Below the pieces are notes generated by a model. It did no database searches, had not been told where the DNA came from, and saw only the letters and a program-made list of their open reading frames with translations. The position numbers were made by a program, and so were the translations under genes. A stretch of 43,749 bases of DNA, from the IMG/VR virus record IMGVR_UViG_2675903595_000011; one strand, given 5' to 3'. Positions 3,265 to 25,568 of the stretch are shown piece by piece (position 1 is the first letter of the stretch; each line of letters opens with the position of its first letter). Source of the DNA: a virus (Duplodnaviria; Heunggongvirae; Uroviricota; Caudoviricetes).

Positions 3265-3912
3265 TCAGCGACCAATCACCACAACCTGACCACCATCCCC
3301 TTCGTCTGCCGTGCTGATCTCCTGAGAAACCACACGTGACCCCACGCGCATTTCCCCGTACAGAACAGGCAGAACATTACCCTGGGCAACCATGTTATCC
3401 AGTGACGAGAAATACGTGTTCTGTTTGCCGTTATCTGTACTGGCTGCCGTGGGCGTCCTGGCTTTCGGTGCCAGCATCTGCGCCACACCACCCAGGATCA
3501 TACTGGCCCCTGCTGCATACATACCCGATACAGCCGCGGCCCCCAGCCAGCCCACAGGGTTCCACCATGCCACCGCAATCAGCGCCGCACCCAGCACCGC
3601 CTGAAACACACCGCCACTTTTGGCACCCGCCAGACGCGGAACGATGTGGATCACGGCACCATTTGCCAGCGGTTCATTAAGACGGGCAGATAATTCATTT
3701 TCGCCTGCATCACGCCCGGCAATGCGCACCTGATACCAGCCGTCGCTCAGTTTCTGACGAAATGCCGGGAGCTGTGTGGCCAGTGCCCGGATGGCTTCGG
3801 CCCCCGTTTTCACACGAAGGTCGATGCGGCGGCCAAATCGCTGCAAATCCCCGTAAAGGCAGATGCGTGCCATGCCCGGTGACGCCAGAGGGAGTGTGTG
3901 CGTCGCTGCCAT
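3265..3912 (-). CDS. tail assembly protein I
   Basis: 215 aa; MAATHTLPLASPGMARICLYGDLQRFGRR... and C-terminal ...QVVVIGR match lambda I as recalled. Confidence 0.8.
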   Translation of the reverse strand: MAATHTLPLASPGMARICLYGDLQRFGRRIDLRVKTGAEAIRALATQLPAFRQKLSDGWYQVRIAGRDAGENELSARLNEPLANGAVIHIVPRLAGAKSGGVFQAVLGAALIAVAWWNPVGWLGAAAVSGMYAAGASMILGGVAQMLAPKARTPTAASTDNGKQNTYFSSLDNMVAQGNVLPVLYGEMRVGSRVVSQEISTADEGDGGQVVVIGR

Positions 3913-4472
3913 TTGTCGGTATACCTCTCTCGTTTGCTCAGTTGTTCAGGAATATGGTGCAGCAGCTCGCCGTCACCACAGTAAATGGCGGCATGATTCG
4001 GCACCGATGAACCAAAACAGCACAGCAGCACATCGCCCGGCTGCGCCGTTGACAACGGCACCTGATACAGCCCTGTAGCCTCCAGATTATCCAGATAGAG
4101 ATTCTGACCATTACGCCACCAGTCGTCCTCACGATGAAAATCTGGCATCTCAATTCCCGCCAGATGGTAAGCGTCCCGGAACAGCGTGTAACAGTCCGTC
4201 ACCCCGTGCTCAAAGCGCCGCCCGGTGAGATGCGGCACACAGCGGAACTTGTGAATCGCCCCGCGGCAGACCAGCCACCACGACAAATCACTCTGCACCT
4301 GCAGCCGCCGGTCGGCCTCACTCAGCCAGGGCAGACCACCGGGCGGCTCACCGGAAATATTCACGCAGGGAAAATATCTTTCCCCCTCCGGTGTTCTCAC
4401 CACGAAGCCGCACGACTCCGCTGGCGCACATCGCCGGGCGTGCGCCAGAATCGCTGATTCTGTCTGTGTCAT
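3810..4472 (-). CDS. tail assembly protein K (peptidase-like)
   Basis: 220-aa ORF immediately downstream of L on the same strand; synteny with lambda L-K-I; overlaps I start so exact ends uncertain. Confidence 0.7.
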   Translation of the reverse strand: MTQTESAILAHARRCAPAESCGFVVRTPEGERYFPCVNISGEPPGGLPWLSEADRRLQVQSDLSWWLVCRGAIHKFRCVPHLTGRRFEHGVTDCYTLFRDAYHLAGIEMPDFHREDDWWRNGQNLYLDNLEATGLYQVPLSTAQPGDVLLCCFGSSVPNHAAIYCGDGELLHHIPEQLSKRERYTDKWQRRTHSLWRHRAWHASAFTGICSDLAAASTFV

Positions 4473-21513: not shown

Positions 21514-22971
21514 TTAGGAGCGCCAAAAAAAACCTGAAAACAATATAATAACAGGATAAATTTCAAGGCGACCAAGAATCATAGCTATGCACATTAAATA
21601 TTTTGCAATGTCATTAAGCACTCCGAATGACGATGCAGTAGCCCCAAAACCTAATCCCATATTATTAATACATGCAGCCACTGTTGCAAATGATGTAAGA
21701 AAATCATATCCCATACCATTTAACACCAGTATAAAAAACACCGTGAAGAGAGTATAAAGAAAAAAGAAACTCCATACAGACCTCATTACACGATCTGTAA
21801 CTATCTTCCCTCCTACATTTACACTCAACAACGCTCTGGGATGAGAAAGCTGATTTATCTCGTGTTTGCTTTGTTTGAAAAGTATAAGAAATCGAAGTGA
21901 CTTAATTCCACCACAGGTTGAACCTATACATCCCCCAAAGAAACTTGACAACAGCAAAAACACTATCGTGTGCGTGGGCCAGTTTGCATAATCCTGCGTA
22001 GCTAAACCATTATCAGTGAGCATGGAGCTGGCAAGAAAAAACGAATGAATAAAACTTCCATGCAAGTCATACATACCTATATGCCAGACCTGGAAAGAGG
22101 TAACAATGATCACCCCTAAGGCTATTAACAGAAAGAAACGAAGTTCAATATCTCTGATTAAAGGTTTTATCGTTTTTCTGCTAATAACAATATACCAAAG
22201 AGTGAAGTTGAAAGCCGATAGCAGGGAAAAAGAACCAGCCACCAGCTCAACCAAATAGTTATTAAAATATCCGATACTCTCGCTATGAGTTGAGAAACCA
22301 CCAAGCGAAACTGTGGAAATCCCGTGACAAATAGCATCAAACAAAGGCATTCCTGCAAGTCTATAACAGACAATACAAGCAATACCTAATAAAGAATAAG
22401 TTATCCACAGTGTCCGTGACGTATCGGCCAGGCGGGGAGTGAGTTTGTCATCCTTAAATGGCCCCGGCATTTCTGACTGATAAAGCTTTGCACCACCAAT
22501 ACCCAATAATGGCAATACTGCAACCGCCAGAACAATAACTCCTAAACCACCTATAAAATTTAACTGTGACCGATAGTACAAATATGCCCGAGGTAATGAA
22601 CTAACATCATCAATTACAGTTGCTCCTGTTGTTGTTATTCCAGAAACCCCTTCAAACAGAGCATCAATGAACGTTAAATTAAGTTCTGAGTCAATCCATA
22701 AAGGGAATGCACTAATAACAGAAAACAAAATCCAAAACATTACAATTATAATAAACCCATCACGGGTACGTAATTGAATGCCAGATTTCTTAGTTGTATA
22801 CCACGCTCCGCCACCAATGCAAAAAAATATAACGAAAGTTATAAAGAAAACGAACAGGCTTTTTTCTTTATAAAACAATGCTACAACCATTGGTGGCAAC
22901 ATTGAAAGACTATAGAGCCAAACCAGGAACCCACACATATGAGTAACAACTCTTACATGAGATGTATTCAT
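21514..22971 (-). CDS. trkG: Trk potassium uptake membrane protein TrkG
   Basis: Polytopic membrane protein; N-terminus MNTSHVRVVTHMCGF... matches K-12 TrkG (a Rac prophage gene) as recalled. Confidence 0.9.
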   Translation of the reverse strand: MNTSHVRVVTHMCGFLVWLYSLSMLPPMVVALFYKEKSLFVFFITFVIFFCIGGGAWYTTKKSGIQLRTRDGFIIIVMFWILFSVISAFPLWIDSELNLTFIDALFEGVSGITTTGATVIDDVSSLPRAYLYYRSQLNFIGGLGVIVLAVAVLPLLGIGGAKLYQSEMPGPFKDDKLTPRLADTSRTLWITYSLLGIACIVCYRLAGMPLFDAICHGISTVSLGGFSTHSESIGYFNNYLVELVAGSFSLLSAFNFTLWYIVISRKTIKPLIRDIELRFFLLIALGVIIVTSFQVWHIGMYDLHGSFIHSFFLASSMLTDNGLATQDYANWPTHTIVFLLLSSFFGGCIGSTCGGIKSLRFLILFKQSKHEINQLSHPRALLSVNVGGKIVTDRVMRSVWSFFFLYTLFTVFFILVLNGMGYDFLTSFATVAACINNMGLGFGATASSFGVLNDIAKYLMCIAMILGRLEIYPVIILFSGFFWRS

Positions 22972-23108
22972 ATCTAAATATTCTTTCAATTATAACCACC
23001 TTGCTGCAATATTATGATTATACTGTATAAAATTTAACTCCTCTTAGATCTTACTTCACTGTTCCTTATGAAACAATCATCAAAATGAATCATATTGTAG
23101 TTAAGATT

Positions 23109-23573
23109 TTACTTTAAACACTGCTCGGTTATGTATTGCTGAGCACCTTCAAGTTGGGCCTGCATCATTACCAGTCGTTCCCGGAGGGTGAAATAATCCC
23201 GTTCAGCGGTGTCTGCCAGTCGGGGGGAGGCTGCATTATCCACGCCGGAGGCGGTGGTGGCTTCACGCACTGACTGACAGACTGCTTTGATGTGCAACCG
23301 ACGACGACCAGCGGCAACATCATCACGCAGAGCATCATTTTCAGCTTTCGCATCAGCTAACTCCTTCGTGTATTTTGCATCGAGCGCAGCAACATCACGC
23401 TGACGCATCTGCATGTCAGTAATTGCCGCGTTCGCCAGCTTCAGTTCTCTGGCATTTTTGTCGCGCTGGGCTTTGTAGGTAATGGCGTTATCACGGTAAT
23501 GATTAACAGCCCATGACAGGCAGACGATGATGCAGATAACCAGAGCGGAGATAATCGCGGTTACTCTGTTCAT
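23109..23573 (-). CDS. spanin inner-membrane subunit Rz
   Basis: [29 protein letters not shown]... close to lambda Rz. Confidence 0.9.
23168..23353 (-). CDS. spanin outer-membrane lipoprotein Rz1 (embedded in Rz, other frame)
   Basis: [20 protein letters not shown] lipobox plus PPPPP stretch. Confidence 0.85.
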
Positions 23574-24089
23574 TGCTGACCCCACAAACAGATTTCACGC
23601 TCAATCTCACGACGAGTCATGAGACCTTTCCATTGCTTACCGCCAGCATATGTCCAGCGACGTAGCTGATCACATGCGCCTTTGATATCGCCCTGGTTTA
23701 TTTTGCGAAGAAGCGTCGATGTTCTGAAATTGCCAGCACCCACGTTGTAAACGAATGAGTAAAGAGCGCCGCGCGTTGTTTCCGGTATATCGACTTTGAT
23801 GTACGGGTTAATTTGTCTGGCGACAGTGGCAAGGTCTTTATTCAAGAGTGTTTTGCATTCTGCTTTGGTATACGTTTTACCGAGCATGATGTCTTTTCCT
23901 GTATGCCCGTGACATACAGTCCATACACCAACAATATCTTTGTATGGTATGTAGCTGACACCTTCCAGACCATCGTTACCACTTGGGCCAGTGATTAACA
24001 CTGATGCTATAGCAATTGCTCCGCCNNNNNNNNNNNNNNNNNNNNNNNNNNNNNNNNNNNNNNNNNNNNNNNCGTAATGATGGAGGCAT
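23570..24089 (-). CDS. SAR endolysin (T4-lysozyme-like); N-terminal region interrupted by assembly gap
   Basis: [25 protein letters not shown]... read up to the gap; MPPSLR start found on the far side, overlapping the holin stop. Confidence 0.8.
24026..24072. other. assembly gap (47 N) in endolysin 5' region
   Basis: Run of n characters. Confidence 1.
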
Positions 24090-24148
24090 TATTCACCTCT
24101 CGCAGCCTTGCGTAATGATGGCGACATTATTCACCTCTCGCAGCCTTA
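24073..24148. repeat. tandem direct repeat, 2 x 38 bp, spanning holin stop / endolysin start
   Basis: cgtaatgatggaggcattattcacctctcgcagccttg followed by cgtaatgatggcgacattattcacctctcgcagcctta. Confidence 0.9.
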
Positions 24149-24342
24149 CGCTTGTCTTCTCTTATTTTGAAATACAGATTTGTCAGATAAGTCAGAAGCC
24201 CCAGAAGCAGACTTCCCAGCACACCAATCGCAGCCCACTGTGATGGACTGACCTGATCCAACCACTGCAAAAACCAGTAGCCGGCACTGCCGGCGGAGGT
24301 GCCGTAGGCAATGCCTGTTGAAATTTTGTCCATGGATTTCAT
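24127..24342 (-). CDS. pinholin (phage 21 S-like), dual start
   Basis: [28 protein letters not shown]...; GGAGGTGA RBS; second Met at 24333. Confidence 0.85.
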
Positions 24343-24593: not shown

Positions 24594-24989
24594 CTAACCT
24601 CGCATGTCAAAGCCAGATTTCTGAAAATCTCTGTAGACTTCCGGATTGTTGAAGGCCGGAAATTTGGCTTTATGAGCTGCGGACTTTATCGCTTCGCAAT
24701 AGGCTTTATCACCGTTACTGGTAGATATTTTTAACGCCGTGCCATCCTGAGAGAATTCCATATGCAACCTGCATTTTTTCCCTTTCCAGTTATGCGGCTC
24801 ATCAAGTTTGGCATTAATTGCAGCTCTGATTCCCCGCGCTTGCGCCCCCCATTCATCCTGATCATCCCAGCGTCCTGAACTGCAACTACCTGTAGCAGTA
24901 GTTTTGTGGCAATCTGAAGGGTGTAAAGGTGTGCATCCCGCAACAAAACCGACCCAAAAAGTCAACATAACGATTTTCTTTAATCCCAC
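24594..24989 (-). CDS. lipoprotein with TolA C-terminal-domain-like region
   Basis: Signal peptide with VAGC lipobox; C-terminal ...CRLHMEFSQDG...NPEVYRDFQKSGFDMRG paralogous to the adjacent gene. Confidence 0.6.
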   Translation of the reverse strand: MGLKKIVMLTFWVGFVAGCTPLHPSDCHKTTATGSCSSGRWDDQDEWGAQARGIRAAINAKLDEPHNWKGKKCRLHMEFSQDGTALKISTSNGDKAYCEAIKSAAHKAKFPAFNNPEVYRDFQKSGFDMRG

Positions 24990-25139: not shown

Positions 25140-25568
25140 TCAGGGTTTAAAATCCAGCACCCCATTTTGAAATACTTTATATACTTCCGGCGAAGGGGGG
25201 GCAGGTATATCAGCATTCTTTATCGCATTCATCGCTTCACGACATAAATCGAGGTCTCCACTTTCTCTTTTAACCTCCAGTAGAAGGCCATTCGGGGCCA
25301 TATGCATTCTCAGTGTACACTCTTTTCCTGAATACTTACTCGCATCCCCGAACTGTTTTTCGATGGCGCTCTTGATTTGATGGGCATACAGACGGATATC
25401 CTCACTAACATCAGAAGTACGTTCAGATGAACTCACATACTGTGTCTCTATTGCTTTATCGGAGTAATATGATGTACGGTCATGATAATTTGTCGATACA
25501 GCATCAGTGCACCCGATAATAATCCCACTAATAATCAACGTAAGAATTGATGCGCTACGAAAACCCAT
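25140..25568 (-). CDS. lipoprotein with TolA domain-III-like C-terminus
   Basis: IIGC lipobox; C-terminal 80 aa read like the TolA C-terminus as recalled (...CTLR...PEVYKVFQNGVLDFKP). Confidence 0.7.
   Translation of the reverse strand: MGFRSASILTLIISGIIIGCTDAVSTNYHDRTSYYSDKAIETQYVSSSERTSDVSEDIRLYAHQIKSAIEKQFGDASKYSGKECTLRMHMAPNGLLLEVKRESGDLDLCREAMNAIKNADIPAPPSPEVYKVFQNGVLDFKP

Follow-up and report, generated by a model that had tools for sequence, protein, structure and literature searches.

The closest described counterparts of the locus analysed here are the S21/R21/Rz/Rz1 lysis cassette of phage 21 and its copies in E. coli prophages (essD/rrrD/rzpD), which share their gene order with the window, i.e., the whole 43,749-nt stretch of DNA under analysis. 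The phage 21 cassette and the window also have in common the GAGGTG sequence ahead of the endolysin gene and the overlapping stop and start codons (TAATG). With respect to the assembly, a second counterpart is found in false tandem duplications at contig boundaries beside gaps, a recognised class of errors (Rhie et al., bioRxiv 10.1101/2020.05.22.110833). Like the members of this class, the window carries a duplicate beside a gap, the units stem from different repeat copies, and their size is smaller than the read length. The class has been described mainly in diploid eukaryote assemblies, whereas the 'haplotypes' in the window are two prophage alleles in one bacterial genome.

The window is part of scaffold CWVZ01000012.1 from the draft E. 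coli assembly GCA_001257995.1 and represents a Rac-like prophage; a literature search for the assembly accession found no paper mentioning it. As reference, we used the Rac prophage in the complete E. coli genome NCTC10444 (NZ_LR134092.1, 2.72-2.77 Mb), the annotation of which includes trkG, recE/recT, intR and ttcA. This prophage is collinear with the window over ~39 kb with the same flanks (trkG, recET, intR, ttcA), and a 24-kb stretch around the locus is 99.8% identical. When the ~39 kb were compared base by base, 13 scattered differences were found outside the patch and gap described below (~99.97% identical), while ~30 of the 43 real differences cluster within 24113-24292. Present in the window only were a patch of a foreign allele, here termed allele X, a 38-nt repeat, two N gaps and an 81-nt deletion in a C40 peptidase gene.

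The lysis cassette

Pfam searches assigned four lysis proteins in the window, PF04971 (P21 holin S), PF00959 (phage lysozyme), PF03245 (Rz) and PF06085 (Rz1). The corresponding features are:

24127..24342, minus strand: gene for a class II holin of the phage 21 S type, with 71 codons before the stop and a dual-start MKSM motif (open reading frame; PF04971, E=1e-35)
24026..24072, no strand: scaffold gap of 47 N, occupied by 25 nt in NCTC10444 (AAAAGTCGTTGCTGCTGCTATTGGT, minus strand) (sequence, reference alignment)
23570..24025, minus strand: rest of the R21-type SAR endolysin gene, codons 15-165 plus stop, native Rac allele (PF00959, E=2e-45; 0 differences from NCTC10444)
23109..23573, minus strand: gene for the i-spanin Rz, within which the gene for the o-spanin Rz1 lies at 23168-23353 (PF03245, PF06085; NCTC10444 annotation)

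The holin begins with MKSMDK and thus has the dual start, Met1 and Met4, of the class II S21 family; 68 of its 71 residues are identical to those of S21 of phage 21, and exactly the same protein is widespread (742 blocks of the public collection). As assembled, the gene is a hybrid, the first 50 nt of which are common to both alleles while the remainder belongs to allele X. The holin stop overlaps the endolysin start (TAATG) and is followed further downstream by Rz with the embedded Rz1, the arrangement of a lysis cassette of this type; owing to the repeat, the TAATG overlap is present twice in the window. The endolysin of such a cassette is a lysozyme-family protein with a Gly/Ala-rich signal-anchor-release (SAR) segment at its N-terminus. 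The catalytic part encoded in the window matches PF00959, but the 47 N conceal codons 7-14 of the SAR segment and the reading frame is broken. After repair of the gap, there is no biological difference between the window and the phage 21 cassette, and the extra 38 nt together with a 12-codon mini-ORF are absent from phage 21 and from every other record searched. The underlying locus is an ordinary and probably intact pinholin/SAR-endolysin/spanin cassette of a Rac prophage.

Just upstream of the lysis cassette lie two small open reading frames (24594-24989 and 25140-25568, both on the minus strand), which code for TolA C-terminal-domain proteins according to the annotation of NCTC10444 (Pfam PF06519) and resemble prophage cargo between the start of the late operon and the holin gene. 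On the other side, the potassium transporter gene trkG (21514-22989, minus strand) directly follows Rz/Rz1 and separates the lysis genes from the packaging genes. It represents a host-type gene carried as prophage cargo at a position typical of Rac.

Allelic composition and occurrence of the repeat

A first-pass annotation of the window, made without database searches, had noted two near-identical 38-bp units with three mismatches at the junction of the holin and endolysin genes, and these were recovered both by repeat searches and by Tandem Repeats Finder. The units at 24073-24110 and 24111-24148 are identical at 35/38 positions (92%, 3 mismatches). Tandem Repeats Finder placed a period-38 array at 24073-24147 (2.0 copies, 94% matches, score 136), the sole tandem repeat in the whole 43.7-kb window. 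As ~7e-11 repeats of this kind would be expected by chance in the window, chance cannot account for it. The features of the region are:

24293..24321, minus strand: 29-nt run common to the Rac and X alleles, inside which the sequence switches from Rac to X (alignment, k-mer test)
24103..24321, minus strand: patch of the foreign allele X, comprising the C-terminal part of the holin gene and the first 25 nt of an MSPSLRKA-type endolysin gene (100% match to L075 and L017)
24111..24148, minus strand: holin-proximal 38-nt unit (allele X) with the holin end, GAGGTG, TAATG and the MSPSLR codons (repeat searches)
24103..24112, minus strand: 10-nt overlap CGCAAGGCTG, a join between R-K-A of the X endolysin and R-K-A at the end of the native Rac holin that is out of register by 38 nt (alignment, k-mer test)
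24089..24127, minus strand: 12-codon mini-ORF, a product of the chimeric join (translation)
24073..24110, minus strand: distal 38-nt unit (native Rac allele) with the holin-end codons, GAGGTG, TAATG and the MPPSLR codons, adjoining the gap (identical to NCTC10444 Rac, ...CGCAAGGCTGCGAGAGGTGAATAATGCCTCCATCATTACG)

On the minus strand, the end of the holin gene in the proximal unit overlaps a short frame reading ATG TCG CCA TCA TTA CGC AAG GCT GCG AGA GGT GAA TAA, the stop of which overlaps a second ATG that continues as ATG CCT CCA TCA TTA CG (MPPSLR) and then enters the Ns. In this text, further elements of the first-pass annotation could be retraced: each unit does carry holin C-terminal codons, GAGGTG and an ATG overlapping the stop, the holin-proximal copy does give rise to a mini-ORF of 12 codons (24127..24089), and the distal copy, with its ATG at 24089, does open with MPPSLR and run into the 47 N at 24026-24072. 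The span of 24026-24148 that had been given contains the repeat, but its start is the first N and not the first base of the repeat, which ends at 24073 and is directly adjoined by Ns from 24072. The chimeric junction reads ...CCATCATTACGCAAGGCTGCGAGAGGTGAATAATGCC... (ACGCAAGGCTGC), the native junction in NCTC10444 ...AAGCGCAAGGCTGCGAGAGGTGAATAATGCCTCCATCATTACGAAAAGTCGTTGCTGCTGCTATTGGTGGCGGAGC..., and the X-type holin/endolysin sequence ATGTCGCCATCATTACGCAAGGCTGTTGC.

All 219 nt at 24103-24321 are 100% identical to allele X in the IMG/VR loci L075 and L017, in which the sequence runs on as ...CGCAAGGCTGTTGCAGCTGC..., a normal endolysin. X-type alignments from dozens of loci all terminate exactly at window position 24103. 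From 24112 down to 24073, the window again corresponds exactly to the Rac text of NCTC10444, 38 nt out of register, and the 10-mer CGCAAGGCTG shared by both parts has a single occurrence in the window. The order in the window is thus Rac, X, Rac from 38 nt earlier in register, Ns and again Rac. From the join to the Ns, native sequence occupies 40 nt and ends at the last base before the starts of the Rac and X endolysin genes diverge. The fault, with its chimeric 10-nt join out of register, is thus not a miscounted repeat. Nor do the two units have the common origin of a genuine tandem duplication, since the proximal one matches allele X and the distal one native Rac, each at 100%; judged by these alignments, the repeat units are two alleles and not two copies.

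These identities also bear on a tandem duplication of the native junction in place, by replication slippage and later divergence of the copies, which would produce a head-to-tail arrangement with a period of 38. However, the proximal unit is continuous with 181 further nt of the foreign allele at a 100% match, and with the prophage elsewhere ~99.97% identical to the reference, three differences in 38 nt are not explained by local divergence. Slippage is, therefore, hardly conceivable as the source of the repeat.

The chimeric structure was found nowhere else. A 138-nt query across the repeat had 0 single-piece full-length matches in 5,426 complete E. coli genomes and likewise 0 in 50,697 phage records, and an exact-pattern scan for the junction returned 0 matches in GTDB representative genomes, IMG/VR and JGI metagenome contigs. 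As a positive control for the pattern scan, the natural X junction gave at least 120 matches in IMG/VR alone. A genuine tandem duplication would be expected to recur in independent assemblies, but none in these five collections contains the junction. Similarly, Rac upstream sequence joined to the X holin occurred in no complete genome, the best full-length identity (94.5%) being to an ordinary Rac allele. The full 219-nt X patch was present in complete E. coli genomes in 3 records at 99.1% and in 0 at 100%. An apparent presence of allele X at >=99% in ~2,600 genomes was rejected, as the matches were short and partial.

The gap in the endolysin gene

The 47 N next to the repeat are already present in the public record CWVZ01000012.1. 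The distance from the ATG at 24089 to the first post-gap codon at 24025 is 64 nt, and 64 mod 3 = 1, so that the ATG and the endolysin beyond the gap indeed clash in frame, as the first-pass annotation had pointed out. Its further suggestions, an arbitrary gap length and an incompletely assembled SAR domain, were supported by the reference: when the 25 nt of NCTC10444 take the place of the 47 N, the frame is restored and an intact 498-nt gene for a 165-aa SAR endolysin results. Only with these 25 nt is the full N-terminal SAR segment seen, and the repaired protein is identical to RrrD of NCTC10444 (WP_001135310.1) and to R21 at 162/165 positions.

Several other readings of the N run were rejected. 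It is not a mask of the true length, as the Ns stand in the public record and differ in number from the reference both here (47 vs. 25) and in a second gap (294 vs. 258). A third repeat unit inside the gap would require 25+38=63 nt rather than 47, and the frame is already closed with the sequence of the reference. An insertion sequence (IS) element in the gap was considered as well. In other assemblies (L135 1-60, L137 1-85, L136 1-130), the same Rac endolysin gene is broken within or just after the SAR codons, with apparent insertion-sequence ends at ~+35 from the ATG (L135, L137) and ~+61 (L136). As these IS-like interruptions leave the same 143-aa open reading frame with a GTG start, the endolysin gene appears to be recurrently inactivated in nature. 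The insertion points in L135, L136 and L137 differ from the gap edges of the window, and a gap length of 47 nt estimated from read pairs is incompatible with a 1.3-kb insert; an IS element in the gap was, therefore, also rejected.

The left contig of the window starts at +42 of the endolysin gene. Five independent metagenome contigs assembled by MEGAHIT from short reads (L139-L143) start at +40 to +42, i.e., within 2 nt of this edge. The position is a recurrent repeat-induced breakpoint for short-read assemblers. At this same position, lambdoid lysis cassettes change abruptly between allele-specific and shared sequence.

Origin of the chimeric join

In the k-mer test, every 30-mer across the right crossover was found in either Rac or X and novel k-mers appeared only from k=31, while at the left join novel k-mers occurred for every k>=12. 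As the left join needs k<=11, the exit from X requires an end-merge at ~10 nt, and an artefact at this position requires a step which merges ends on a small overlap. Plain de Bruijn path switching was thus rejected as a full explanation, as it fails at the left join and is possible only for the entry into X. Merging of this kind is performed by GapFiller, which extends gap edges base by base with 30-mers (overlap m=29), takes a majority vote where alleles differ, and closes a gap at an overlap of at least n=10 nt provided that the length inserted deviates from the estimate by no more than d=50 nt (PMC3446322). The Sanger high-throughput pipeline combines SSPACE with 120 GapFiller iterations, and its authors describe the tools as greedy, with false joins possible (PMC5320598).

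When an extension along X was emulated, the in-register overlap failed (CGTAAGGCTG vs. CGCAAGGCTG), and an exact match of 10 nt or more to the native piece was first reached 38 nt beyond the true position, within the 50-nt tolerance. The 29-nt shared run, the 10-nt overlap and the 38-nt overshoot fit the GapFiller defaults of 29/10/50, and from this fit we infer that a GapFiller-type software step was behind the join. In addition, the anomaly is situated at a contig end beside an open gap of wrong length, as is characteristic of a false join by a gap closer or scaffolder.

Taken with the sequence comparisons, these results make it very probable that the 38-nt repeat is an assembly artefact of the draft scaffold and not a feature of the phage. 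Of the two alternatives left by the first-pass annotation, a repeat-induced misassembly is supported by the foreign patch, the wrong gap length and the unique junction, while a real junction duplication affecting holin/endolysin coupling is not, given the two alleles and the 0 matches in the five collections searched. The strain would carry a normal Rac-type lysis cassette (pinholin, SAR endolysin, Rz/Rz1), and the read set would also have contained a second phage-21-type cassette, allele X. Extension of the contig end into a gap may have slipped from Rac to X within the shared 29-nt stretch and then have followed X through the end of the holin gene and 25 nt into the X endolysin gene. At this point, the last 10 bases of the extension (CGCAAGGCTG) would have equalled the first 10 of the next native piece, and the two were presumably merged on that overlap. 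As the overlap lies 38 nt past the true position, 38 nt would be present in duplicate, with one version from each allele. The following gap, which covers the signal-anchor codons of the endolysin, would have been left open with 47 N estimated where 25 nt belong. A small intermediate contig has to be assumed to account for the 40-nt native piece between the closed join and the open gap. Against an artefact counts that allele X is uncommon in complete E. coli genomes.

The same structure could also have arisen by a real and recent recombination, in which ~220 nt of the lysis cassette of another lambdoid prophage replaced the Rac counterpart. One crossover would have taken place in the 29-nt identity, while the other would be an illegitimate join at the microhomology of 10 nt (homology-facilitated illegitimate recombination). 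As a result, 38 nt would genuinely be duplicated, and a coupling ORF of 12 codons would separate the pinholin gene from that of the SAR endolysin. The window would then show a freshly formed mosaic joint before selection tidied it, and the nearby gap would be an unrelated consequence of the repeat. Recombination requires both crossovers to lie in shared sequence, as they do, and would provide the 10-nt join that simple de Bruijn path switching cannot yield; lambdoid prophages are mosaic, this one encodes RecE and RecT, and the duplication would be translationally tolerable, since each stop overlaps the next ATG. However, recombination predicts neither a repeat touching the N run, with the foreign patch forming the last ~250 nt of the contig, nor the mere 40 nt of native sequence following the patch. 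The contig ends 17 nt past the second ATG, and with real reads and k>=17 that 17-mer would be unique, so that no break would be expected there. As, in addition, the structure is unique among all collections searched and the values of 29, 10 and 38 match gap-closer defaults, we consider recombination unlikely.

An artefact may also have come about in another way, i.e., by a chimeric library molecule, a mixed culture, or a scaffolder or merger other than GapFiller that butt-joined contig ends of the two alleles. The anatomical evidence is the same as that for the gap-closing error, from which this possibility differs only in the tool or step responsible, and false tandem duplications beside gaps are a described class of errors. 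It explains the coincidence of 29, 10 and 38 less neatly, and we regard it as very unlikely.

For phage biology, the locus is of very little importance, its genes being those of a textbook cassette of the phage 21 type within a common Rac prophage. The deposited scaffold, with its chimeric holin, spurious mini-ORF and frame-broken endolysin, rather constitutes a data-quality flag: automated annotation would report the lysozyme as truncated or pseudogenised and the pair of holin and endolysin as a new combination. The scaffold from ~24073 to 24321 should be treated as misassembled, and the mini-ORF and the frame-broken endolysin should not be interpreted. The region clearly illustrates how a tandem duplication can result when a gap is closed greedily between two alleles of a prophage gene cassette; if the join were true, it would be a rare snapshot of lambdoid mosaic boundaries arising at very short homologies.

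Two further deviations from NCTC10444 were observed at a distance from the lysis genes. The gene for a lambda-K-like C40 family peptidase (open reading frame 3810..4472, minus strand) has an in-frame deletion of 81 nt (27 codons) at 4343/4344, with no microhomology at the breakpoint. Among the top matches listed from the E. coli and phage collections, none had this deletion, all aligning in two pieces (281 nt vs. 200). By comparison with lambda K, the lost segment would include the HSH metal-binding motif of the N-terminal MPN/JAMM domain. The deletion may be real and inactivating, or the assembly may have gone wrong a second time, in a prophage gene present in several copies.

The second gap, at 2626-2919 inside the tail-tip gene gpJ, has 294 N in place of 258 nt in NCTC10444. 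A chimera signature like that at the lysis genes was sought at this gap and not found, differences from the reference being evenly spread over gpJ; the flanks of the gap are 96-99% identical to NCTC10444. Two different prophages of NCTC10444 encode identical J, I-like and K-like proteins, with the same WP accessions, indicating that this gap is situated in an intra-genome repeat.
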